A stretch of DNA of 64,000 nt from Candidatus Latescibacterota bacterium. GTDB lineage: Bacteria; Latescibacterota; UBA2968; UBA8231. A program made the translations under genes and the position numbers. Every line of letters starts with the position of its first letter. Positions within the stretch are counted from its first letter, which is position 1. The DNA is taken from positions 256,001 to 320,000 of the forward strand of contig CBDFJF010000001.1 of assembly GCA_965248265.1 (NCBI GenBank), in the 5' to 3' direction. The notes under the pieces were generated by a model. That model was not told where the DNA came from. It searched no databases and saw only the letters and a program-made list of their open reading frames with translations. This document shows, in pieces, positions 15,888-29,585 of the stretch.

Positions 15888-17855
15888 ATGAAAGCGCAGA
15901 CACAAGACGCCTCAAAGGCGTCCGAGCTCTGGTCGATCACACCCCGCGGCTTCATCATCGGATGCGTCGCGGCAGCTACTCTTGCCATCACCATTCCCTA
16001 CGGCGGTATGGTCATCCAGGGTTCTCGCCTGGGATTGAGCGCATGTACTCCCGCCGCCTTTTTTCTGTTTTTCGTTCTGCTGATCACGGTTCAAGTCGTC
16101 CTCGGTATGCTCAGGCGGGCGTGGCTCCTCAAGCCGGGTGAGTTGATCGTCGTCTTCGTCATGATGATGATGGCCACCGCCATCCCGACCCGCGGCGTGG
16201 TGGGCGTGCTCCTCCCGATGATCACCGGCACCTTCTACTTCGCCACACCGGAAAACAATTGGGCCGAGCTCATCCATCCCTTCCTGCCGCGCTGGATGGT
16301 CCTCTACGATACAGAGGCGGTCAAGGGATTCTACGAGGGCACGAGCTCTGCGATCCCATGGGAGTTGTGGACGCCTCTCCTGCTGAGATGGCTGGTCTTC
16401 TTCGCAGCCTTCCACCTGACCCTGCTGTGCGCCCTGGCGATGCTCAGGCGCCAGTGGGTCGAGCACGAGCGCCTGGCTTTCCCTCTGGCTCAGGTCCCCC
16501 TGGCCATGATTCAGGATGGCGAAAAGGCCGATTCCATCGTCAAGCCATTCTTCAAGAACCCGGTCATGTGGATCGGCTTCCTGCTCTCCTTTTCCCTGAA
16601 CAGCACGAATGCGCTGCATCACTACGTCGACTACATCCCTGCCCTTTTGTCCGAGTACCACACGAGCATTTTCCGGGGCCACGTCGGGCTGACCTGGCGC
16701 ATCAACTTCCTCATGTTGGGCTTCGCCTACTTCATCGGCTCCAACGTCTCTTTCAGTCTCTGGTTCTTCTACCTCCTCCACCTGATCCAGGAAGGTGTTT
16801 TCAACATCGTCGGTATCGGCAATCCCGAGCAGCTCGGGCACTGGACCGATTCGGGTCCCGTGGGCGCCATCATGGCCCATCAGATGATGGGCGCCCTCAT
16901 CGTCCTCGTCCTCTTCGGTCTGTGGACCGGGCGCTCCCATATCCGGCAGGTGCTGTGGAAAGCCTGGGACCGGAGCGCCCCCGTAGACGATTCCCGCGAG
17001 ATCATGTCATACCGGTTCGCCGTTGTCGGGTTCCTCGTCGGACTCGGCGCGATGTGGGTGTTCCTGTGGAAGACGGGAATACCCGCCTGGATCGCGCCGC
17101 TGTTCATCTTCGCCGCTCTCATCATCTGGATCGGACTGGCTCGAGCCGTCGCCGAGGCCGGCATTCCGACCATCACGCCCTCCATTGTCCCGGCCGGCTT
17201 CGTCATTTCCGGAGTCGGCACTTCCGCGCTGGGCATAGAGGGCATCGTCGCCACCGGGATGACGCTGACCTGGGGAGGCGACCTTCTCGCCTTCATCACA
17301 GCCCCCATGGCCAACGCTATCCGGCTGGGCAGCGAGGTGGCCAGGCACCGACGAGCCGTGTTCACCGCCATAGCCACGGCCCTGCTCATCAGTCTGGTGC
17401 TCTCCGCCTGCTTTCTCGTGTTCCTCGCCTACCGGGACGGCGCCCTGCATCTGCACTCCCAGTACTTCACGGGTTTTGCTCGCTACCCCTCGGACATGGC
17501 CGCCACCCAGCTAGCCAACCCCACAGGTCCCAACCTGGTGGGATGGTTGTGGACGGGCGCCGGTGGGCTGTTCATGGCCGGCTTGATGATTGCACGTCAC
17601 TTTCTGATTTGGTGGCCCTTCCACCCGATCGGTTTTGCCGTGAGTGCCGGCTGGGTGCTGAATCAGACTTGGTTTTCCATCTTCTTGGCATGGCTCATCA
17701 AGCTCGTCTTCTTGCGCTACGGTGGTCCCAGCATGTACGAGAAGACGAAGCCGTTCTTCATGGGCATCATCATGGGGCAGTTCGTGGTGGGGGGTTTCTG
17801 GTTGATCGTCGACGCCTTCACCGGCATGCAGGGCAACGTCATTCGGGTGTACTGA
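15888..17855 (+). CDS. Multi-pass membrane protein, putative peptide transporter (DUF6785/DUF6784-like)
   Basis: 655 aa; RRQWVEHERLAFPLAQVP, WWPFHPIGF, SIFLAWLIK..LRYGG, PFFMGII.G. Confidence 0.75.
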   Translation: MKAQTQDASKASELWSITPRGFIIGCVAAATLAITIPYGGMVIQGSRLGLSACTPAAFFLFFVLLITVQVVLGMLRRAWLLKPGELIVVFVMMMMATAIPTRGVVGVLLPMITGTFYFATPENNWAELIHPFLPRWMVLYDTEAVKGFYEGTSSAIPWELWTPLLLRWLVFFAAFHLTLLCALAMLRRQWVEHERLAFPLAQVPLAMIQDGEKADSIVKPFFKNPVMWIGFLLSFSLNSTNALHHYVDYIPALLSEYHTSIFRGHVGLTWRINFLMLGFAYFIGSNVSFSLWFFYLLHLIQEGVFNIVGIGNPEQLGHWTDSGPVGAIMAHQMMGALIVLVLFGLWTGRSHIRQVLWKAWDRSAPVDDSREIMSYRFAVVGFLVGLGAMWVFLWKTGIPAWIAPLFIFAALIIWIGLARAVAEAGIPTITPSIVPAGFVISGVGTSALGIEGIVATGMTLTWGGDLLAFITAPMANAIRLGSEVARHRRAVFTAIATALLISLVLSACFLVFLAYRDGALHLHSQYFTGFARYPSDMAATQLANPTGPNLVGWLWTGAGGLFMAGLMIARHFLIWWPFHPIGFAVSAGWVLNQTWFSIFLAWLIKLVFLRYGGPSMYEKTKPFFMGIIMGQFVVGGFWLIVDAFTGMQGNVIRVY

Positions 17856-17899: not shown

Positions 17900-18210
17900 T
17901 CACCTTCCCTGATACAGGTGGTCAGCGATGGTGCCGATCTCAAGCTGGACGCGCTCTTCAATCTCTCCCCTGCGCTTCTGCCTCTGGTACGTGGCGAGCG
18001 CCCTTCGCGCCTCATCTTCCCGGCCCAGCTCGTTGTACAATGTGCCGAGGAACAGGTACGCACGCGGCCCGATCCACTCGGCTTCGCGCAGCGCCTCGAC
18101 GTAGGCGAGCGCCTCCCCGTGTCGGCCCATGCGGTACAGCACGGCTCCCAGCTGCCACCTGACGGGATCTGATTCCGGGTCCACGGCGAGGGCCTCTCGC
18201 AGCAAATCCT
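17900..18210 (-). pseudogene. 3' fragment of a TPR-repeat protein
   Basis: LREALAVDP..RWQLGAVLYRMGR..EA and AYLFLGTLYNELGR..EA; no credible start, frame runs into the terminator/att region. Confidence 0.6.
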
Positions 18211-18217
18211 GGATAGA

Positions 18218-18262
18218 CAAAGAGAAAGCCCTGGGAATTAAAATGGTGCCGTCCCAGGGCTT
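18218..18262 (-). terminator. Intrinsic terminator downstream of the tRNA-Val 3' fragment
   Basis: Perfect 11-bp stem AAGCCCTGGGA/TCCCAGGGCTT followed on the minus strand by TCTCTTT. Confidence 0.65.
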
Positions 18263-18268
18263 ATTTGA

Positions 18269-18317
18269 TGGTGGGCGATGCCGGGCTCTCACCAGCGACC
18301 CCCTGCTTGTAAGGCAG
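18269..18317 (-). other. tRNA-Val(UAC) 3'-half fragment, putative att site
   Basis: Minus strand CTGCCT-TAC-AAGCAGGGGGTCGCTGGTGAGAGCCCGGCATCGCCCACCA: anticodon arm, decayed T-loop, acceptor 3' strand and CCA; no 5' half. Confidence 0.85.
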
Positions 18318-18372
18318 TGGTTTGTGTTAATATTTACAGTAAGTTATAGATATGTATCCCTCCGTGTAACCA

Positions 18373-18636
18373 TTACAGTCCACGCTTCCCACCATAGAGG
18401 TCGTATTCGGCCCGAACGACATCTGCAAGCCGGAACCTGATAGTCTTCGAGCCAAAACGCACGCCTGGCAGGTGAACACCAGACGGGTGATTTCCGTTGG
18501 CGATCTTCATCACTTCCTTCCTACTGATCTTCCATCGATCCATCAGCATCTCGGGCGCGACGAGCTTTTCGCCGTTGATGATAGCGTCGGCCTCTTCGCT
18601 CGCGTAATCCTCATACGTAGTCTTCATCGGCATCAA
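18373..18636 (-). CDS. Excisionase/AlpA-like small winged-HTH protein
   Basis: LMDRWKISRKEV...LPGVRFGSKTIRFRLADV; adjacent to att. Confidence 0.7.
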   Translation of the reverse strand: MMPMKTTYEDYASEEADAIINGEKLVAPEMLMDRWKISRKEVMKIANGNHPSGVHLPGVRFGSKTIRFRLADVVRAEYDLYGGKRGL

Positions 18637-18687
18637 CCAATATCACCGTCCACCGCATCCGACAAGGTGGCAATGTTCCCGATTGGT

Positions 18688-18791
18688 GTGAACGGTGCAC
18701 CTTGGTGAACCATTTCCCGGACTAGCGCTCGAGAGTCCTGAATCCAAGTTGCTATCCTAACTTGTGGTTCACGAAGGTTCACAAGGTTCAC
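18688..18791. repeat. Opposed hexamer iterons (putative origin)
   Basis: GTGAAC at 18688 and 18705; GTTCAC at 18767, 18777 and 18786, at the primase 3' end. Confidence 0.45.
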
Positions 18792-20466
18792 TCCCGAGTA
18801 GGCGAAGGCCTCTCCACCGTACGCCTGATCTTGTTTTGATTCTCTCGAAGCCACGTTCTCTTAGCCGCGGGGCAAGGGCCTTCTGCGAGATGTTAGTCCC
18901 GCTCCATTTCCGGTAAGCCTCAACGAGTTCTGTCGAACCTACCTTCGCTGAGGGTTCTATAGAGCAGTGTTCAGAGAGAAATCCTGCTAGTATGTCCTCC
19001 TCCGCCCGATAAGCGGCCGTCGCTTCGGCCACCTCGTCTGGTATTCCCAAACCGTTAGCTGCCCACTCAAGGCAGCCGCGGACGGCCCAAGCCAAAATAC
19101 CGGGGAATTCCTCCTTCAGCTTGGCAGGCAGGGATTGGTCCTGCTCACCTCGGGAAATCGTGACATTGAAAGGTATCAGGTGGATCCGGCGCCAGATGGC
19201 GTTGTCAGTCCCTTTGACATTGGGCTTGTGATTGGCCCCGAGCCAGGTCTTGTGGGTTGGCCAAAACTCGCGAAAGTCTTGCCTCATTTTACGGGCAGTC
19301 AGTCGATCGCCGCCCGTTATCTGCTTTACTAGGCTCTCAGCGAGCCGTCGCCCATCCTCGATCTCCATGGCCACCGCTAAGCGCGCCCCCTCCAGGTCGG
19401 CCAGTCCGGTTGGATGCGCGTCTCCGTGTCGGACCAGCAACAGGTCTGGCTCGACCTGTTTACCGTAGGCTCCGAGCAGAGACAATAGGACGTTCAGCAT
19501 CGTGCTTTTGCCATTGGCTCCGGCCCCGTGAAGGAAGAAGAGCACATGTTCTCTGGTGTCACCCGTCAGCGAGTAACCAACGGCGCGGCATAGGAACTCC
19601 ACCAGACTTGTGCTGCCGCCGAGGACTTGGAATAAAAAGCGATCCCAGACCGGGCATGTTGCTGATGGGTCGTACGGAACCTTGATGATGCGTGTTATCA
19701 GGTCATCTCGGCGGTGAGGTTTCAACTCTCCCGTGCGGAGGTCTATCGTGCCATTCTTGACGTTTAGCAAGAAGGGGTCACAATCGAACTCTTCTAGTAG
19801 GACCGGGATTCCAAGTTCGCTCTCTGCCAGTTTCAACATGGCACGCAACTTGGGTTCCGACTGCGATCGCATTGCGTGTTTCACAAGCTCTTTGCACTTG
19901 TCATTGTCTTCAATTTTCGCGGCCTCGGTTAAGATGTCGAGGGCCGTTAGCTTCGCGAAACGCATAACTTCAGCAGTCTCATCGAGAGCCCACCGCTGGC
20001 CGTCCCAGACGTACCACTTGCCATTGGTATGGCAGAATCTGAGTTCGCTGCTAAGCTCGAACACTAGGCGGCGTGCGTTGCCCAAGTCAGTCAGATGTCT
20101 GGGGGTAGGGCCGGTCTGTGAAGGAAGAGTCTCCTCGATCTGCTGATGACCGTTGGACTTGTCAGGGGCGGAAGCGGCCGTTGATGTCGGTGACGCAATC
20201 GCACGTGCAGCTCTCGCCTGGGCCTGACGCCTCTTGGGTGTTTCTGGAAACAGATCCTTCATCGCCAACCCCCGGGCTTTCATGACGTCGCGGGTTTCGC
20301 AGCCCGCGTGGCAGTTCACTAGGCAGACCCCGTCCTCCGTGAGTTCAACTGAAAGAGAAGGTTTTCGGTCATCGTGTGCCGGGCAACAGACCGTAAACTT
20401 GCCGTTCCGAGGCCCTCCGTGGGGAGGGAGGGCCTTGAGAATGTCGTAGGCTCTTGCTATAGTCAT
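18769..20466 (-). CDS. Phage/plasmid primase-helicase, P4/D5 family, with N-terminal Zn finger
   Basis: CPAHDDRKPSLS..NCHAGC; TDLGNARRL; LNVKNGTIDL; HGAGANGKST; VKQITGGD; AIWRRI; start taken at MTIAR. Confidence 0.9.
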   Translation of the reverse strand: MTIARAYDILKALPPHGGPRNGKFTVCCPAHDDRKPSLSVELTEDGVCLVNCHAGCETRDVMKARGLAMKDLFPETPKRRQAQARAARAIASPTSTAASAPDKSNGHQQIEETLPSQTGPTPRHLTDLGNARRLVFELSSELRFCHTNGKWYVWDGQRWALDETAEVMRFAKLTALDILTEAAKIEDNDKCKELVKHAMRSQSEPKLRAMLKLAESELGIPVLLEEFDCDPFLLNVKNGTIDLRTGELKPHRRDDLITRIIKVPYDPSATCPVWDRFLFQVLGGSTSLVEFLCRAVGYSLTGDTREHVLFFLHGAGANGKSTMLNVLLSLLGAYGKQVEPDLLLVRHGDAHPTGLADLEGARLAVAMEIEDGRRLAESLVKQITGGDRLTARKMRQDFREFWPTHKTWLGANHKPNVKGTDNAIWRRIHLIPFNVTISRGEQDQSLPAKLKEEFPGILAWAVRGCLEWAANGLGIPDEVAEATAAYRAEEDILAGFLSEHCSIEPSAKVGSTELVEAYRKWSGTNISQKALAPRLRERGFERIKTRSGVRWRGLRLLGSEPCEPS

Positions 20467-20563
20467 TTCATCGGATCCATACGGCCCGCCGCTTTCGCCT
20501 CCCAGCTTAGTGACGGGCCGTTTTTCTGTTATGCAGCAGGACACATCGCCCTGCTGTTTGGTT

Positions 20564-20758
20564 TCACACCACGTTCCGGTCCGTGATTAGGTGGCGTAGT
20601 CCGACGGCAAGGCGCTGCCTTGTACGGGTAGTCGGACGGCAGATGCGACCGTTGAGGAGGCGGCTCAGGTAGTAAATCGACAGGCCTGTCTCCCGAGCGA
20701 GATCACTGTTGGTGGCCTCGAGCGCTTGCAAGATCATTCTGATTCTGAGCGGGTTCAT
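20564..20758 (-). CDS. XRE/Cro-type HTH regulator
   Basis: NSDLARETGLSIYYLSRLLNG..RP. Confidence 0.7.
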   Translation of the reverse strand: MNPLRIRMILQALEATNSDLARETGLSIYYLSRLLNGRICRPTTRTRQRLAVGLRHLITDRNVV

Positions 20759-20785
20759 CAGTTCTCGTGGGTTTCGGGGAAGAAC

Positions 20786-20868
20786 AAAAAAAAGGGGCTC
20801 GCGGTCTGTGGCACGCACTCCGACCCGTTCCTCCACGGAGAAGTGAATGCCACTGACCGAGAACCCCT
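20786..20868 (-). terminator. Long stem-loop with U8 tail in the leader of the XRE-primase operon
   Basis: Pairing AGGGG/CCCCT, CGGTC/GACCG, GTGGCA/TGCCAC, CTCCG/CGGAG, followed by a T8 run on the minus strand. Confidence 0.55.
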
Positions 20869-21057
20869 ACCCTCATCTATGCGATGACCAGGGAGATCCC
20901 TGCTATGATGCTTTTACAATACCAAGCCCTTGTGTCTTTGGCAAGACAAGTATTTGCTGTTCCATGTAAAACCGGCTAAACCGGCGGTCTGATCCGGTCG
21001 GCGCCCCGGGATTGTTCCACGGCAAGTCCCGCAACTTCTTGCCTTGCTTAAGAAGCC

Positions 21058-22038
21058 CTAAAGCCCGTCCTGCGTTCCTCTCAGCGATTCGAATCGCCGG
21101 AACGCGGCCCGAGCAGCTTCAGGGTTCACTTCGGCGTACTGAAGTGTCGTCCTAAGGCTGCGATGCCCCATGAGTTGCTTGAGAGCCAATGAATCGATCA
21201 CTCCTGCCCGTTCGGAGCCAAAAGCATGGCGCAGCTGATGAATTGTGGCCGCCTTTCCTCCGCTGGTCACGCCAACGGAATACCGTCGGAACAGCCGATA
21301 AGCCATGTCGTAGCTCAGTGCCTCGCCGCTCGATTCCGAAAACTGCCGCGAGATGAACAGGGGCCCATTCGAGGGGTTTCCTCTCTCTCGGAGGTATCTC
21401 TTGATCAGAGCCACAACTCGCTGGCTGACGAAACCTTGGCGCTCTCGTTCACCCTTGCCCCATACCCGCATGGTCCCTTCACTCAGATCCACGTCCTCAA
21501 TCCTCAGAGTTAGGGCTTCGCGAATCCGCAGACCTGAATCATACAACAGCGTGAAAAGTGCCTTGTCCCGTGGTGCCTCGATGCGTCCCAGGATCACCTT
21601 GACTTGATCCTTCGTGAGAGGGCGGGGAAGTCGCGTAGGTGTCCGTTTCCGCTGCAGGCCCTCCATCGGGTTTGCACGCAGGGTCGCCCTGGTTCTTAGT
21701 GTTGGGACTTCTGGGAGTTTCACGATCCAGTTGAAGAAGTTGTGAAGGGTTCCGAAATGCCGGTTGTATGTGGCGGGTGACACCGGATTGCCCTCCGCCG
21801 TCGTAAGATTACCCAGATACTCGGAGATTTCGGTGCCACTGACGTCGGAGATGCGCCTGTCTCCGAATTGAGCCTCGAAGCGCCTAAGGTCCGCTCGGAA
21901 AGCCTTCCCCGTGTTCACGCTGAAATCGTGATCAGGGCTGCGAAATTCCTTCGATGCCTTGCTGATGGTGAGGACTTTGGGCTGAGGTCTTCCGGGGCGC
22001 CCGAGCTCCCCCAGGCTTGGATTGGGTGTCGAGTTCAA
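21058..22038 (-). CDS. Tyrosine recombinase (XerC/D-like, no arm-binding domain)
   Basis: LYDSGLRIREAL (R), WGKG (K), HQLRH, LMGHRSLRTTLQY. Confidence 0.92.
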   Translation of the reverse strand: MNSTPNPSLGELGRPGRPQPKVLTISKASKEFRSPDHDFSVNTGKAFRADLRRFEAQFGDRRISDVSGTEISEYLGNLTTAEGNPVSPATYNRHFGTLHNFFNWIVKLPEVPTLRTRATLRANPMEGLQRKRTPTRLPRPLTKDQVKVILGRIEAPRDKALFTLLYDSGLRIREALTLRIEDVDLSEGTMRVWGKGERERQGFVSQRVVALIKRYLRERGNPSNGPLFISRQFSESSGEALSYDMAYRLFRRYSVGVTSGGKAATIHQLRHAFGSERAGVIDSLALKQLMGHRSLRTTLQYAEVNPEAARAAFRRFESLRGTQDGL

Positions 22039-22106
22039 GATATTCTACCAGTTCTGCCCCAAAATAGGGGCCGTAAGTTGTTGTATTGCCATAGCGGAAT
22101 AAATGC

Positions 22107-22140
22107 GAGTTCAAGATACCTTGTCAAGTATCTTGAGCTC
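22107..22140. promoter_or_regulatory. 13-8-13 inverted repeat, putative recombinase core site; extra half-site at 22031..22042
   Basis: GAGTTCAAGATAC-cttgtcaa-GTATCTTGAGCTC (1 mismatch); GAGTTCAAGATA repeated over the TTG start. Confidence 0.6.
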
Positions 22141-22165
22141 ATTTACATCAGGTTGCCCGTCCTGC

Positions 22166-23233
22166 TCAGATCGGGTTCGAAACCGTTGCCACAGACTCCA
22201 ACAAGGATATCAGCCGTTCGTGGATCGAACGCCAGTCGTCGGCGAGGTTGACTGTAGCCACACGCAGCGGGTAACCTCGGACCACATAACGCAGGTCGAG
22301 ATCATACTCGACAGTCGGATAGAGAAGCATCCCCTCCGGGGTGGTACCCGAAGAGCAATCTGTATTGGCGAGATAGGCATGCATCTGGTAGAGATTCGCC
22401 GAGTGTACCGTCTCGCGATCGTAATTCGACTGTAACGCCTCGTAGTAGTATTTGGTGTCGATGATCATGTGACGGTTCTTTGATCGTAGTGAGACGTCGG
22501 TCCGCATCCCGGGGAGGAATTGAGAGCCGTGTTCGCTTAGGGATACGGCGTCCCAAGAGATCTTCTCGGAGCCTACTGTCGAGAACTCCGCCTGCTCGCG
22601 GGCGTAGAAGTTCCGTACAAAGTCCTCGAAGAGACGCTCCATCTGCCGACGGTCTTTCGTAAAGTCCCGGAATCTTGTGCGGCCCGTTTCCTCGGAGACA
22701 AATAGGTTCTGGTTCACAAGGGTGCAGAGATCTATCAGAAACCCATAAACTTTCGACTGACTGCCTATCTGGACAGCCCGGAAGGTCAATCCCGATACCG
22801 GTATGACCTCGATCCCATCCAGTCGCCTGCACATACCACCGCAGAGCTCGCGAGATTGCTGATCAACACAGTGTGCTCGAGCCAGCCGCCATAGGGTGCT
22901 CTTGATGATCCTGTTGGGTAGAGTGTCATAGCTCAGTTCGTCGTAACGGCAATGGAGCCGCCCCAGCGGGGCCAGTTGTCGTTTGACCGTCTCCGAGAAG
23001 TCCAACCTGCCTCTAAGTCCACGGATGTCAGCTGTCGTCTCAATGTAACCCCTTCCCATACCCCTACGTATCAGGTGCGCTGTCCCGTTCGCCAGAACCC
23101 TAGCCAGGAGATCAAGAATGCCGACGCCTGACTGAGTCTCAACGGCGGTCAGCTCTCCCTCTTCGAGTCTATTCCATGCGTAGGAGAGCAGGTAGTAGAC
23201 GTTTCGAATAGGTATCTGGCGTGGGTTACTCAC
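22166..23233 (-). CDS. mcrC: McrC restriction endonuclease subunit
   Basis: IPIRNVYYLLSYAW, LFEDFVRNFY, MRTD..L...IIDTKYY, NLYQMHAY, GMLLYP. Confidence 0.92.
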   Translation of the reverse strand: MSNPRQIPIRNVYYLLSYAWNRLEEGELTAVETQSGVGILDLLARVLANGTAHLIRRGMGRGYIETTADIRGLRGRLDFSETVKRQLAPLGRLHCRYDELSYDTLPNRIIKSTLWRLARAHCVDQQSRELCGGMCRRLDGIEVIPVSGLTFRAVQIGSQSKVYGFLIDLCTLVNQNLFVSEETGRTRFRDFTKDRRQMERLFEDFVRNFYAREQAEFSTVGSEKISWDAVSLSEHGSQFLPGMRTDVSLRSKNRHMIIDTKYYYEALQSNYDRETVHSANLYQMHAYLANTDCSSGTTPEGMLLYPTVEYDLDLRYVVRGYPLRVATVNLADDWRSIHERLISLLESVATVSNPI

Positions 23234-24880
23234 TTCAAGAGCCCGTCGATCTCCGTGTCGAGTCTCTTCTGGTCGCCTTCGTCAAACCAGTATTCTCTTA
23301 ACAAGGGCGCTATCTCATGTCGGATCTTGCGCTCATACCAGGCATTGTCGAACGGGCCTACTTCGCCGGGTTTGGGGCAGAAGAAACTATGCCCGATGCA
23401 GTACCCTGTGCCCAAGTCCCGTGTGTTCTCCGAAATCGCCTTGTTCAACGCGCCCATCTTGGAAACGATTCTGTCGACGAGCGGACCTCCGACGCCAGTA
23501 TTGATGAGCACATCCCTAAAACGTGTGCTACGGAACGCCGGCTTCATGTCCACGAAAACGAACCTCCGACGGAGCGCGTAGTCAACCATGGCGAGGGACC
23601 GATCTGCGGTATTCATAGTCCCGATCAGAAACACGTTCTCTGGTACATAGAACCGGTCTCCATCTGGCTGATAAACTAGACTGACTCCTAACGCTGGATC
23701 TCGTTTGTCGTGCTCGATTAGCATGAGGAGTTCACCGAAAATTCTACTGAGATTACCCCGGTTTATTTCGTCGATGATCATCACATGTGGGTCATTAGCG
23801 TTCTTGAGGGCGTTCTCCACGAATTTGAAGAAGATCCCGTTCCTTAGCTCAAACCCCCCGGTGTCCCTTGGCCGGAATCCCTGGACGAAGTCTTCGTACG
23901 CATAGGATTGGTGAAACTGGACCGTGACTAGCTGCTCAATCCGCTCTTGTCCTAGCAGAGTCTTCGCGATTCTTCGGGCAGCGAATGTCTTCCCTACTCC
24001 TGGTGGACCCTGCAAGATTAGATTTTTCTTCTCACGTAGCAGCCCGAATGCTTCGTCAAACTCACTGGGTTCCATAAACAGGTCCGCGAGAGCGTCTTCC
24101 CGCGTGTAGGGAACGTCCCCCGAAGGCTTTGGTGCGGAGTCACGCGTTTCCGCCCAGGCAACGTAGGCACCTAGAAGCGAGGCCAGTTTGTTGTCCAGGT
24201 CAGATTGCGCCGAATTCTCTATCTCCATCTCACTTATGAACATCTCTAGCGACATTGCCAGGTAATAATCCCGCCCTAGTGTTCCCTTGGCGGGTTCCAC
24301 CGTGGGGCGATTGGTAGTGTCATCGTTTGCTGTCCAGAAGCTCTCAGTAAGTGCGGAAAGACCGTTGAGTTCTTCTGCTACCGTACGTGCCTTGTGCGTA
24401 CCGGTTTTGCCGGGATTCTCTGTTGTTGAGGCGCCGATGCCCAGGCGAATCCCCGGGCCGTCCGGGCTTCCATTCTCAGCACCGAATAGGAAGTGCACCA
24501 CGGGATACACTCCCGTCGTAGGCTTCGACGTAACGCGAGTGTCATACACAGCAACCCATGGCGTGACCGCCCAATTCCCAAGCCCGCAGGATGCACCACC
24601 CTTCCAGTGCTCGTTCGGTACCAGGAACTGTGCAAGTTTCTCAAACTCTCGAGCAAGGTCTTTACTCAACTGATAGATTTCTGTGTCAGAAGAGAAGGTC
24701 TCTGGTCTGTCTGGATAGACCTCCAGGAAAAGCTGGCAGAGTTCCCAGAACCCATAGGAATCGCCAGCCTCATCTGTACCCGCCTCCACACCAACCTCAC
24801 GTACCTCACCTGGCCTACGCTTGTTCTGCTCGAAAGCCACAAACTCTGGAAATCGCCTCAAATAGGGGTCGGTTATCCTA
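23230..24880 (-). CDS. mcrB: McrB AAA+ GTPase with DUF3578-like domain; 5' end removed at the IS3 junction
   Basis: NLILQGPPGVGKT, VQFHQSYAYEDFVQG, IIDEINRGN, GTMNTADRS, ALRRRF; G.GNWAVTPWVAVYD...GVY domain; native start missing. Confidence 0.88.
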
Positions 24881-24931
24881 TGAATCGCCCCGGGGTTGCC
24901 GGAGGCTCCATTTCTTGAGAGGATTGGAGTC

Positions 24932-26163
<1,232 letters not shown>

Positions 26164-26193
26164 CCGAGTCTCCGAAAAACCCGGGGCGATTCA

Positions 26194-26490
26194 GTTCCGT
26201 ATGCGATTGTAGGATAACTGGGTCACATACCCTCTGGCGAACAAATCGCGAGTGGCCTCAAGCTCATGTCGCAGGGTGTCGGCTGCTGCTCGGCGATGAG
26301 ACAGTAGCAGGTGACGCTCCCGGAGCTCCAGCTGGCTCAGCTCCTGGTCCCTCGTCAACGCGTCCGCAGAAAGCAGGTCAGGCACGATGAGAATCACCAG
26401 CAGGGTGATTGCGGCTGAGAGACGGATTCCAATTGGCGAGTGTGTTCGCACGGACTGGGGCCTGGCCGGATCGAGGGTGGTCTTCGTCAA
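26194..26490 (-). pseudogene. 5' fragment of a secreted/membrane coiled-coil protein truncated by IS3
   Basis: Hydrophobic leader LSAAITLLVILIV then helical segment; stop codon lies inside the IS right end. Confidence 0.5.
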
Positions 26491-26807: not shown

Positions 26808-29585
26808 ATGTCCAAGACTTCCAGTGATGGTTTAGCCCGTCTACAAAACGAAAGCAGGATTCCCGCTTCGACCTGGCGGCAGTGGTGTAATCTCTTGAAG
26901 ATGGACTCAATGGAGGCCATCGATGTGTGGGAAGAGATCTGTCACCCCATCATGATCGCCAACAGAAAAGTACCTGAAATCCCATACATCCTTCAGCTGC
27001 GCTCCCAACGGCCACAGCTCGACATTTTCGAGTTCAAAGAAGAAATCGCCAAGGTCCTGAACCTGATCACCTTTCTGTACACTCTGGACGATGAGTGTCT
27101 GGTTAAAGGCAAGGTCAAGTCGGCGTTGCTCAAGCTCTACCGCAGCATCTCCACGAAAATGAGCCCGACTGAACCCTACACAGCGTTCATCGATCGCTTC
27201 TTGATCGAAGCGTTAATGATGGTCTTGGTGACCAAGGTACTCAAGGGACCCAACATCAGTCTGGCGGGCGTATTGAAGCCTCTCGTGGAGGGTCGTGGTT
27301 CCATCGTTCAGGTCATGCGCCTTGGGACGAAGTCGTTGGGGGAGGAGCCGTACGTCGACACAGTTCGTGAATGCCTTCAGGAGCATTTTCTTGACCCCGG
27401 TGCCAAGGTTTCCTCCGGCCCAACTAATGGAGCGTCATCGACATCAACGGATGAAAATGAAGAGGATGACGATGAGGCCGACGCCGGCGTTGTTGACGAC
27501 GTAGAGGACGAAGATGATGAGTACGACGAGGATGCTGAAAACGATGATGACGACGTTGCTGACGATGATGAAGATGATGAAGATGATGACGAAGCCGATG
27601 AGGATGACGATGAGGATGCTGGAGACGAAGAAGAAGATGATGATGATGACGACGAAGACGATGGGGATGCTGGGGACGAAGAAGAAGATGATGATGAGGA
27701 GGAGGATGATGATGAAGATGATGATGAGGACGAAGACGACGATGATGATGATGATGAATACGGCGACGACGACGACGATGATGATGACGCCGACGAACCG
27801 GTCGAGATCTTTCTGCTGAAGTTCAAAACCGCTCTACACTCCATCTACGAGTTTGAGTCAGGGGTTACCGATGACGCGGAGGAGATTCCTGAAGAGGACC
27901 AGGTGCTGGAGGCGCGCCTGAAGGCGACGGCAGTCTTCGATCCGCTCCACGCATCAATACCCTCGATGGAAGAGGCGCAAAACATCGCGCGCCGAGCTGA
28001 GCTCGCACGCAGTCCCAGGAAGCTGCACAAGGTAGCGCCAGCGCCCATAGGAGGGGGCGCGAGTGCCGGCGGCGCAGGTTCCGGCGGTGGCGGTGGCGGT
28101 GGAGCTGGTGGTGGAGCCGGTGCCGCAGGCTCTGTTACCGCGGCCGTTGCCGCAGCGAAAGCCGCTTCAGCGAGCGCCAAACATCCCTCAGATGCCGTCA
28201 AACCGAGAGCCGCGCCCCGAAAGGATGGACAGGCTGAGAGCCGGGTCAACATGGACAATGTCCAGGATGTTGACATCGACGCAGCTGACTACGTGGACGC
28301 GGCCGAGGTGACGTTCAATGAGTTCAGCGAGCGCGTTCATCAGGTCTGCGGCCAACTGGCCGGTGTAGAAAAAGCGGACCAGTCGGTTTGGGCCGTGTTC
28401 ATCGACCCTGCTGGCGATATCGACAATCCATCACAGCTGGCGCGCACAATGTCGATGGAAGGAACGGACGCGTTCAAGGCCTACGCCGTTATCAAAATGG
28501 CTTCCCAGTACCTGCAACTGAAGAATCTGCTGTCCATATCCGATCAGATCCTCAAGAAGGATCGCAACTTCATGATCGAGGTTACGCAGATGTTGAATCA
28601 CGTCAATAACGCGAATAAAACCCTGCAGCCTGACAGTCGGCAGCTGGTGCCTCTGGGCAAGACCCTCGACCATGCAGCGGCATCGCTGGTCAGGCTGGAG
28701 GCTCTGAGGATCAACTACAAATTCGGCCATGAGCACGGGGATGAGTACACGAAGGACTCTGTCACCGTTTACTATGAAGAAGCTCTGCGCTCCCTGACGG
28801 ACCTGACGGACCGTGATCTGCTGGCCGCGGCCAGACAGAAGGCGGACGCCGACACCGTCCAGATGCTGAAGGTTTTCGAGGCGGCCCGCTTCGTCGATGC
28901 CGTGAAGACCACGATCCGTGACTACGTCAAGGAACTGATTGACGCGGGACAGGGGAAGTCGGCGCCGGCCGTAGGGGCGCACACCATCGCTTCTCCGATA
29001 GAATTCGAGGACGCGGAAAAGACGGACGCAGATCCCATTCCACCCGAGTTCCTCAAGCCGAGCGACCTGGGCGAAGCCTACGATGCAGTTTGCGCGCACG
29101 TTTGCACGGAAAGTTGGTCTTACATGACACCCGTGCATCAACCCGAACAGGCGATGGATGACATCAGGGCCATCGTAAGGGAGTTGATGGTGGGCGCTGC
29201 GACCTTCCAGCCAGAGAAGAAGCGCCATCAGGAGAAACCGGCAATGGCGTTCTCCGTCGTCAGCCTGGACAAGGTCTCCGGCAACGCCAACCTCAAGGAT
29301 CTGTTCGTGCGGCTCAAGGAGGATGGTGAGATCAATTTCGTCGAAGACTATGAAGATGGCTCCTTCGTCGACCTCTTCGAGTTGCGGGAGTACAAGCCGG
29401 CTCGTATCGCGACTGCCGCCAAGAAGAAAGCGGAGGCTGAGGGCACAGAGTCTCTTCAGACCGGGCGCAAGTATCTTTATACCTTAGGCCGAACCAACAA
29501 GCTCTTCGGAGAAGCCCCGGCCGATATCATCAACAGCTGTGTCCGAGATGAAAACGGCGGACCCAAAGTGTTCGTCACCTTCTGA
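26808..29585 (+). CDS. Large hypothetical cytoplasmic protein (925 aa) with a D/E-rich tract and a G/A linker
   Basis: Long ORF with host-like codon usage; no recognised domain. Confidence 0.85.
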   Translation: MSKTSSDGLARLQNESRIPASTWRQWCNLLKMDSMEAIDVWEEICHPIMIANRKVPEIPYILQLRSQRPQLDIFEFKEEIAKVLNLITFLYTLDDECLVKGKVKSALLKLYRSISTKMSPTEPYTAFIDRFLIEALMMVLVTKVLKGPNISLAGVLKPLVEGRGSIVQVMRLGTKSLGEEPYVDTVRECLQEHFLDPGAKVSSGPTNGASSTSTDENEEDDDEADAGVVDDVEDEDDEYDEDAENDDDDVADDDEDDEDDDEADEDDDEDAGDEEEDDDDDDEDDGDAGDEEEDDDEEEDDDEDDDEDEDDDDDDDEYGDDDDDDDDADEPVEIFLLKFKTALHSIYEFESGVTDDAEEIPEEDQVLEARLKATAVFDPLHASIPSMEEAQNIARRAELARSPRKLHKVAPAPIGGGASAGGAGSGGGGGGGAGGGAGAAGSVTAAVAAAKAASASAKHPSDAVKPRAAPRKDGQAESRVNMDNVQDVDIDAADYVDAAEVTFNEFSERVHQVCGQLAGVEKADQSVWAVFIDPAGDIDNPSQLARTMSMEGTDAFKAYAVIKMASQYLQLKNLLSISDQILKKDRNFMIEVTQMLNHVNNANKTLQPDSRQLVPLGKTLDHAAASLVRLEALRINYKFGHEHGDEYTKDSVTVYYEEALRSLTDLTDRDLLAAARQKADADTVQMLKVFEAARFVDAVKTTIRDYVKELIDAGQGKSAPAVGAHTIASPIEFEDAEKTDADPIPPEFLKPSDLGEAYDAVCAHVCTESWSYMTPVHQPEQAMDDIRAIVRELMVGAATFQPEKKRHQEKPAMAFSVVSLDKVSGNANLKDLFVRLKEDGEINFVEDYEDGSFVDLFELREYKPARIATAAKKKAEAEGTESLQTGRKYLYTLGRTNKLFGEAPADIINSCVRDENGGPKVFVTF
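27450..27797 (+). repeat. Low-complexity GAN repeat encoding ~116 mostly Asp/Glu residues
   Basis: GAT/GAC/GAA/GAG runs; DAGDEEEDDD unit repeated at 27615 and 27666. Confidence 0.9.

Follow-up and report, generated by a model that had tools for sequence, protein, structure and literature searches.

In the deletion-inversion of Tn10, the central segment is lost, the second insertion sequence (IS) becomes a direct repeat, and both inside ends are joined to the target, as outlined in the available part of PMC2723962. Origins of the Staphylococcus aureus pathogenicity islands (SaPIs) carry iterons immediately downstream of rep, arranged as two opposed sets around a central region (PMC9371898, in part), and, for a locus of the three-core grade, the accessible text of PMC10085698 leaves three possibilities: a satellite, a mobile element of another sort, or genes brought together by chance. 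The locus compared here with these systems lies in a 64-kb stretch (hereafter the window) of genome G000, from a Candidatus Latescibacterota bacterium, corresponding to G000:C1:256001-320000. An initial annotation had taken positions 18218-24880 of this stretch for a compact, self-contained satellite-like element at tRNA-Val(UAC) with a type IV restriction system. The evidence presented here makes it highly probable that window 18269-24880 is the part, 6.6 kb in length, proximal to the right attachment site (attR) of a single tRNA-Val(UAC) island of about 11 kb, which was split by an IS-linked inversion of about 261 kb.

No complete tRNA was found within the window by ARAGORN. The intact tRNA-Val(UAC) was located at G000:C1:537517-537593 on the plus strand, 263 kb from the window copy, and the window fragment matched this host tRNA. 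The attR core (18269..18317, minus strand) was a copy of nt 29-77 of the tRNA, running from the anticodon stem to CCA, with 47 of the 49 positions identical and both mismatches within the T loop. Two copies of the core occurred genome-wide, one in the intact tRNA and one at 18269-18317; a third was absent from the genome and from within either half of the island. The chromosomal flank 3' of the tRNA copy (18212..18268, minus strand) was predicted by folding to form a terminator-like hairpin with a U-rich tail, consisting of a stem of 11 bp and a loop of 15 nt followed by UUUCUCUUU, with an energy of -19.5 kcal/mol and a z of -4.07 (0 of 200 shuffles equally good). This hairpin was missing from the list of a simple terminator scan because its 15-nt loop is above the limit of the scan. 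Thus, the tRNA-Val 3' half with CCA and terminator, as annotated initially, was borne out by the 49-nt copy, its CCA end, and the hairpin. Directly past the hairpin there was a small ORF (open reading frame) with tetratricopeptide repeats (window 17900-18200), the listed start of which overlapped the tRNA fragment, so that either its true start lies further in or the gene is a remnant.

The right-hand limit first assigned to the element, coordinate 24880, was the last base before the left inverted repeat (IRL) of an IS at 24881-26193, and the first 108 codons of the long ORF read as mcrB were antisense IS sequence. The true mcrB part, delimited by Pfam and homologue alignment (23230..24880, minus strand), encoded MrcB_N/DUF3578 and the AAA_5 GTPase part and was devoid of its first 95 codons. 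The missing start (95 aa, Mrr_N domain) was found 261 kb away at L003:6723-7007, beside another copy of the same IS, as an Mrr_N-only ORF cut after codon 95 by the IS, again at IRL. P0002 (647 aa, encoded on a 30.6-kb contig; Mrr_N, MrcB_N and AAA_5), the best non-self homologue of the window McrB, aligned through residues 1-95 with L003:6723-7007 at 77% identity without gaps and through residues 96-638 with window 23230-24879 (minus strand) at 49% identity, the latter match beginning at residue 1 of the fragment. The DNA flanking the two IRLs, ..ggatag and taggat.., showed reverse complementarity over 3 bp (target duplication), and the mcrB frame was continuous once one copy of this 3-bp duplication was removed. 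The gap-free homologue alignment, the duplication and the continuous frame together indicate that both mcrB pieces were once one gene, and therefore that a single island occupied the stretch from the intact tRNA to the copy of its 3' end. The architecture Mrr_N plus DUF3578 plus AAA_5 is uncommon, PF14338 being present in 2 of the 120 homologues listed (P0002 and P0101).

On the other side of the window IS, the first 99 codons of a gene with an NPCBM_assoc domain (orf99; 26194..26490, minus strand), recognized by orthologue and paralogue alignments, abutted the right inverted repeat (IRR) and represented one half of the presumed donor site. The 426-codon tail of the same gene was located at G000:C1:543323-544600, giving a whole gene of about 525 codons with its pieces 261 kb apart, and both pieces abutted IS right ends. 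Six orthologous loci were aligned by tblastn. In four of them, orf99 ended at nt 2779 and the 426-aa fragment started, without change of frame, at nt 2778; the other two had no match to the short piece and were scored as misses. In addition, the 426-aa fragment aligned to a tandem paralogue from residue 102. The two pieces thus overlapped by 1 nt and had no 3-bp duplication. Intact NPCBM_assoc orthologues occurred as tandem pairs in many relatives.

The distance from dapA to a gene encoding a 712-aa protein was 3.9-5.1 kb in four of five relatives, 56 kb in the fifth, and 259 kb in G000. In G015 and G008, dapA-dapB-UVR stood beside FmdA or beside orf925-712aa, with the orientation predicted. 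This conserved adjacency in relatives indicates that the outer flanks were once neighbours and that a single inversion, about 261 kb long, turns the ancestral order into the present one. At the junctions, both mcrB halves were on IRL, both NPCBM_assoc halves were on IRR, and the two IS copies were in direct orientation. A single inversion of about 261 kb has taken place, with one breakpoint within mcrB, the other within the NPCBM_assoc gene, and an IS copy at each. The 925-aa ORF (window 26808-29585) matched no Pfam family even at E <= 5; its paralogue was located at C1:493.7-496.3 kb, and G008 encoded an orthologue.

Three other routes to this arrangement were rejected. Homologous recombination between resident IS copies keeps the end type of each flank, and mcrB would then have one IRL and one IRR. 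A replicative inversion by a single IS would likewise join one target half to IRL and the other to IRR, with the copies inverted, and explains only two of the four junctions. Right-to-right pairing of the window IS with the copy at C2:2472433 and of the 542-kb copy with that at C2:1368976, considered on account of 3-bp matches, was discarded on the translations, and one of the partners bore a 4-bp duplication of its own. What would account for all the junctions is a pair of head-to-head IS copies, a few bp apart in the NPCBM_assoc gene, whose facing left ends were inserted into mcrB, the DNA between these ends being lost upon insertion into a target on the same molecule. If each copy had made a 3-bp duplication, the IRLs in the donor pair would have been about 5 bp apart, which fits the 1-nt overlap. 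IS3-family elements are known to insert in a targeted manner beside the end of an IS already in place. Features of a deletion-inversion, namely the same type of IS end on both target halves, a reverse-complement duplication, and direct IS copies, were all observed. As a consequence of the inversion, mcrB would now be without its start and Mrr_N domain, and, since 263 kb now separate the left attachment site (attL) from attR and the two are in inverted orientation, the island presumably cannot excise as a unit or circle.

The IS itself (24881..26193, plus strand; 1313 bp; BLAST, Rfam, Pfam) was organized as orfA, an ALIL frameshift pseudoknot (25210-25326, 101.2 bits in Rfam), and orfB, with IRL abutting mcrB. 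Its ORFs matched HTH_Tnp_1 and rve and its ends were TGAATCG...CGATTCA. BLAST detected 14 genomic copies, 12 about 100% identical (one of them truncated at the left end) and two at 89-91%. A matching 3- or 4-bp duplication was present at 8 of the 14, six identified by script and two more (4 bp) read by eye from the flanks. The orfA/orfB pair with frameshift, the DDE-type rve domain, the TG..CA inverted repeats, and the duplication of 3-4 bp are those of the IS3 family. A target duplication of their own was absent at the window IS (cta/gtt) and at the 542-kb IS (tag/cag). Six of the 14 copies were without a matching target duplication, one of these six being also the left-end truncated copy; this suggests further IS-linked rearrangements in G000 beyond the inversion resolved here.

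With the inversion undone, the direct repeat of the tRNA 3' end bounds about 11 kb, with the intact tRNA on one side; 4,415 bp belong to the tRNA side and 6,561 bp to the window side. The guanine plus cytosine (GC) content of the island was 0.53-0.58, compared with about 0.60 in the surrounding window. The reconstructed order begins with tRNA-Val (attL), a 394-aa integrase, a doubtful ORF of 99 aa, ORFs of 323 and 450 aa, and mcrB (Mrr_N, DUF3578 and AAA+ GTPase), which at its present location is the Mrr_N ORF cut by the IS; it continues with mcrC, a Xer-like recombinase, XRE, a helicase with Zn ribbon, D5_N and superfamily 3 (SF3) domains and 3' iterons, an Xis-like helix-turn-helix (HTH) protein, and attR. 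The 394-aa tyrosine integrase (L003:2772-3956, on the plus-strand tRNA side; Phage_integrase, 1.5e-21) starts 177 bp past the intact tRNA-Val and is encoded outside the window. The 323- and 450-aa ORFs (L003:4319-6717, that is, G000:C1:539318-541716) formed a conserved two-gene cassette without Pfam families. The 450-aa family gave 176 hits and no Pfam domain, and a 323-aa homologue was directly upstream of a 450-aa homologue in three of the four closest IMG/VR loci (L127-L129). The 450-aa protein was modelled as an all-alpha solenoid (predicted local distance difference test score, pLDDT, 90) for which no informative structural match was found, and sequence searches of the PDB with both proteins returned nothing. 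The cassette may be an undescribed accessory or defence pair.

The motif ATGGTTACA, a candidate arm-type integrase site, was found by motif search in the P arm (18365..18373, minus strand). It had 23 genomic copies, counted on both strands, and three of these were no more than about 170 bp from one or the other att core: two just ahead of the start of the 394-aa integrase (P' arm, on the side of the intact tRNA) and one over the stop codon of the Xis-like gene. The three shared one orientation relative to the tRNA, and they are plausibly the arm-type sites of a single attP. On the 5' side of tRNA-Val, synteny was kept in all three relatives examined. Synteny of tRNA-Val with the DUF6785 gene of the left flank of the window was looked for in the closest relative, G015, and was not retained there; paralogues of this gene number at least 29 per genome. 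The protein concerned (DUF6785/DUF6784, window 15888-17855) belongs to a very large paralogue family with >900 matches in all, 4-30 scored matches being obtained across the 41 genomes searched and up to 29-30 in many of them.

In the window half, the Xis-like, helicase, XRE, recombinase, mcrC and mcrB genes were all co-directional on the minus strand. This set had been listed in the initial annotation and was confirmed by profiles, the Zn ribbon of the helicase being weak. The Xis/AlpA-like protein (18373..18636, minus strand; 87 aa) was classified as a small HTH_17-type DNA-binding protein from a family profile and a structure model. It had no Pfam match of its own; its family comprised 31 representatives, and HTH_17 was matched by 7 of 29 aligned members. 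The model (pLDDT 73.7) was nearest to BldC and the excisionases 8c3t, 4j2n and 8dgl, all weakly (E >= 0.1), and translation probably begins at the Met of residue 4. Among its closest homologues, P0241 was 79% identical. The predicted replication initiator-helicase (18769..20544, minus strand; 591 aa; Pfam, NCBIfam) possessed D5_N (3.3e-36) and DUF5906 (1.2e-08) domains and scored 311 bits against TIGR01613 (P4 family), for which the cut-off is 108.7. Its CHC2 Zn ribbon (E 0.0042, 17.3 bits) was below the Pfam cut-off of 24.9, and Pfam detected neither a Prim-Pol nor a Toprim domain, in contrast to most of the homologues listed. The closest homologues, P0122-P0126, were 61-68% identical; others were encoded by small plasmids (46-54% identity) and actinophages (36-38%).

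Upstream of the helicase gene there was an XRE/Cro-C1-type HTH regulator (20564..20836, minus strand; HTH_26, 22.6 bits against a cut-off of 22), followed by the second, Xer-like tyrosine recombinase (21058..22038, minus strand; 326 aa; Phage_integrase, 6.1e-26) with a SAM-like N-terminal domain. The latter resembled XerA, XerC and XerD with scores under the equivalog cut-offs. Its homologues (53% identity) occurred in three other genomes of the phylum, in variable, defence-rich regions where the neighbours were NACHT, SNF2, PIN and ADP-ribosylglycohydrolase genes and not homologues of the helicase, XRE or Xis. This recombinase may serve to resolve multimers, or it may be an integrase that came with a formerly separate module. 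Between its gene and mcrC, a palindrome, CAAGATAC-N8-GTATCTTG (22105..22130, minus strand), was observed; because it is unique in the genome, it was rejected as a recombination site and is probably an operator or terminator. The mcrC gene (22166..23233, minus strand) matched PF10117 (2.2e-34) and NF007277 (343.4 bits, cut-off 338). Its product, the McrC nuclease subunit, is encoded side by side with the McrB AAA+ GTPase, which aligned to residues 159-448 of PRK11331 with the NTAD and Walker motifs visible; a complete mcrB reading frame is not present at this place, the first 95 codons being 261 kb off behind an IS. Other repeats within 18150-24900 were only short pairs at chance level. No protein of the window half had a structural or packaging match in PHROGs, and capsid, terminase and conjugation genes are absent, as stated in the initial annotation.

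A candidate replication origin with opposed GTGAACC-type iterons was revealed by repeat search at 18688..18791 (minus strand). Three direct GTGAACC repeats were located at the 3' end of the helicase gene, the last one over the stop codon, and were followed, after a spacer of about 54 bp, by GGTTCACC, GGTGCACC and GTTCAC in reverse orientation. Of the 11 GGTTCAC sites in the window, four fell within 87 bp at this place. The core GTTCAC is shared with the P4 iteron, TGTTCACC. Since the layout of the repeats resembles that of the SaPI origin as described in the available text of PMC9371898, an iteron origin served by a self-loading helicase appears the likeliest interpretation.

When intact, the island would have been excised and integrated at the 49-nt core by the att-proximal integrase with the aid of the Xis-like protein. 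The helicase would be loaded at the iteron origin so that the circle could replicate, the XRE protein may have acted as repressor of the island, and McrBC would cleave modified incoming DNA.

Integrase-plus-primase islands of relatives were found at tRNA-Met (G059 and G006). A scan for intact relatives of the island with the helicase as single query gave one 31%-identical locus in genome contigs and nothing in viral or metagenome contigs. A profile scan recovered 80 metagenome loci with helicases of 39-55% identity; none of the 80 had homologues of Xis, XRE, the recombinase, McrBC or the cassette beside the helicase, and only two distant integrase matches were seen. In G008 (L110, G008:C1:3240154-3244901), a 4.6-kb insert was observed that is flanked by tRNA-Val(UAC) and by a repeat of 50 nt of the tRNA 3' end, with genes for a TOTE-type AEP/ResIII helicase and a Gp49-like protein and a DUF4160/DUF2442 pair, and without integrase. 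G015 and G032 had repeats of about 21 nt of the tRNA-Val 3' end about 90 nt downstream. On the basis of the bounded insert in G008 and these short repeats, the 3' side of tRNA-Val(UAC) may be a recurrent integration site in the bacterial family.

The split island has to be weighed against an error of the assembly and against the element as first annotated. Mis-joining across identical 1.3-kb IS copies would mimic an inversion and leave mcrB with a simple IS insertion, and with 14 near-identical or related copies in a two-contig assembly of 92% estimated completeness there is room for such an error. However, a simple insertion puts the mcrB halves on IRL and IRR, whereas both are here on IRL within 30 bp of unique sequence; a path swap across IS bodies cannot alter which IS end a flank touches; and the second split gene gives the mirror pattern on IRR. 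Independent short-read contigs (four runs of one sample) reproduced the window-side junction, bridging 17900-24910 including 30 bp of IRL-specific sequence, and the IS was covered about 13 times as deeply as the flank. Neither an excision joint nor an IS-free mcrB was present in the contigs of these runs, which, as contigs, prove nothing by absence. An assembly artefact is regarded as extremely improbable. Hardly more credible is a complete compact element at 18218-24880, of an undescribed satellite family and with the 326-aa recombinase as its integrase. On the right it ends at an IS junction that cuts a gene whose other half is 261 kb away, and neither an intact tRNA nor a second att copy exists on that side. 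In its favour, the Xis-like, helicase, XRE and recombinase genes form a compact, co-directional set, and the recombinase, having homologues in variable, defence-rich regions of relatives, may itself be the integrase of a mobile element; but a synteny search for the recombinase-XRE-helicase trio gave nothing in 168 genomes of the phylum or the 80 metagenome loci. The supposed satellite family of this lineage found no support either, the best helicase match among the 168 genomes being 45% identical, and the recombinase lying internally, which had been thought peculiar, is explained by a conventional 394-aa integrase adjoining attL in the other half. The association with tRNA-Val, the P4-family helicase, the Xis-like gene and the type IV cargo of that element thus stand, while its self-contained nature does not, the rest being 261-263 kb away; the larger element to which it belongs does exist, as an island and not as the prophage or plasmid that had been considered.

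It is considered unlikely that the 11-kb island, when intact, functioned as a minimalist phage satellite of the PICMI (phage-inducible chromosomal minimalist island) or Type C PICI (phage-inducible chromosomal island) kind, induced and packaged by a helper phage and carrying McrBC and the cassette as defence cargo. The island does have Int, a regulator of the HTH_17 type and an SF3 initiator-helicase, with SaPI-like opposed iterons just 3' of the helicase gene (cf. PMC9371898, in part), three core proteins can make a satellite, as in PICMIs (available text of PMC10803314), and defence cargo is typical of satellites (accessible part of PMC10085698). By the components listed in that part of PMC10085698, the island scored 3 of 7 P4-like and 3 of 5 PICI components, a three-core grade that the SatelliteFinder authors treat there as ambiguous. 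Against a satellite, homologues of capsid-morphogenesis, small-terminase, Psu/Sid/Delta and Ash proteins were not found among the island proteins with Pfam and PHROGs, the 450-aa protein is an all-alpha solenoid without informative structural match, the helicase family is equally at home on the small plasmids and actinophages mentioned above, and neither a helper phage nor relatives are known. Satellite status is unsupported, the island having three core functions of satellites at most. A little less likely again is an ancestral island of an undescribed satellite kind, in which Int, an HTH_17 Xis/AlpA-like switch, a primase-less Zn-ribbon SF3 helicase and a SaPI-like origin would be combined with helper packaging and with McrBC and the 323/450-aa pair as defence cargo.

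The reconstruction of a split tRNA-Val island, though preferred, has several points against it. The head-to-head IS pair was never observed and its spacer is gone; IS3-family elements are known for transposing by copy-out-paste-in and not for Tn10-type cut-and-paste, so that the chemistry of a two-IRL event in such an element is an extrapolation. The T-loop mismatches of the attR copy could have arisen by decay or have come from an attP that matched imperfectly. On its 3' side, tRNA-Val has no conserved flank in relatives, so that the window sequence left of 18268 is a putative ancestral neighbour of the tRNA. Either the 394-aa integrase or the 326-aa recombinase may have made the integration, and the Mrr_N-IRL junction is taken from the assembly, the reads having been aligned to the window only. 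Finally, an intact copy of the island was found nowhere else in genome, viral or metagenome contigs, including the 168 phylum genomes, and the reconstructed order is thus without a living example.

The main value of this analysis is a correction, by which an odd compact satellite with an internal recombinase becomes half of a conventional tRNA island. The locus also provides a natural, reconstructable case in which an IS pair would have flipped 261 kb, disabled a restriction gene and locked a mobile island in place, and the two split genes fix both breakpoints to the nucleotide. That an IS3-family element shows such same-end geometry is a mildly unusual feature, of interest to IS specialists.

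Compared with Tn10 inside-end deletion-inversion, as far as the available part of PMC2723962 describes it, the end type on the target halves, the reverse-complement duplication, the direct IS copies and the loss of the inter-IS segment are the same. In contrast to Tn10, an IS3-family element (DDE rve, ALIL frameshift) takes the place of IS10, and the presumed donor consists of two head-to-head copies with only about 5 bp between them rather than a composite transposon with cargo. Compared with McrBC of E. coli, McrC attains the equivalog cut-off and the AAA+ part of McrB aligns, whereas the N-terminal reader is Mrr_N plus DUF3578 instead of the E. coli McrB N domain, and mcrB is decapitated.

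P4-like satellites share with the island the integration at a tRNA 3' end, the C-terminal domain of the P4-family helicase and defence cargo; they differ in Psu, Delta, Sid and Ash/epsilon, not found here with Pfam and PHROGs. In comparison with the P4 alpha primase-helicase, the helicase possesses the TIGR01613 C-terminal domain (311 bits) and no catalytic primase domain was detected, while in comparison with P4 AlpA the Xis-like protein is related to HTH_17 through its family only (7 of 29 members). With PICIs, SaPIs and Type C PICIs, the island has in common the core of Int, regulator and SF3 self-loading initiator-helicase (as listed in the available part of PMC10085698) and short iterons that directly follow the helicase gene on its 3' side in two sets of opposite direction (as in the SaPI origin described in part in PMC9371898). 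It differs in that small-terminase and capsid-morphogenesis genes were not found with Pfam and PHROGs, in that its genes are all co-directional whereas those of PICIs are divergent around a master repressor, and in that no helper is known. PICMIs, in the accessible text of PMC10803314, are located next to fis in Vibrionaceae and depend on virulent helpers, whereas this island is at tRNA-Val. The closest counterparts are the tRNA defence islands with an integrase and a TIGR01613/D5_N helicase. The present island differs from these in a helicase without recognisable catalytic primase domain, in the second, Xer-like recombinase, and in being split and inverted; it agrees with them in the integrase by the intact tRNA, the far-side repeat of the tRNA 3' end, the P4-family helicase, the small Xis/AlpA-type HTH protein, the defence cargo, and a GC content below that of the surroundings. 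It is an ordinary tRNA island of a known kind, now broken and immobilised.

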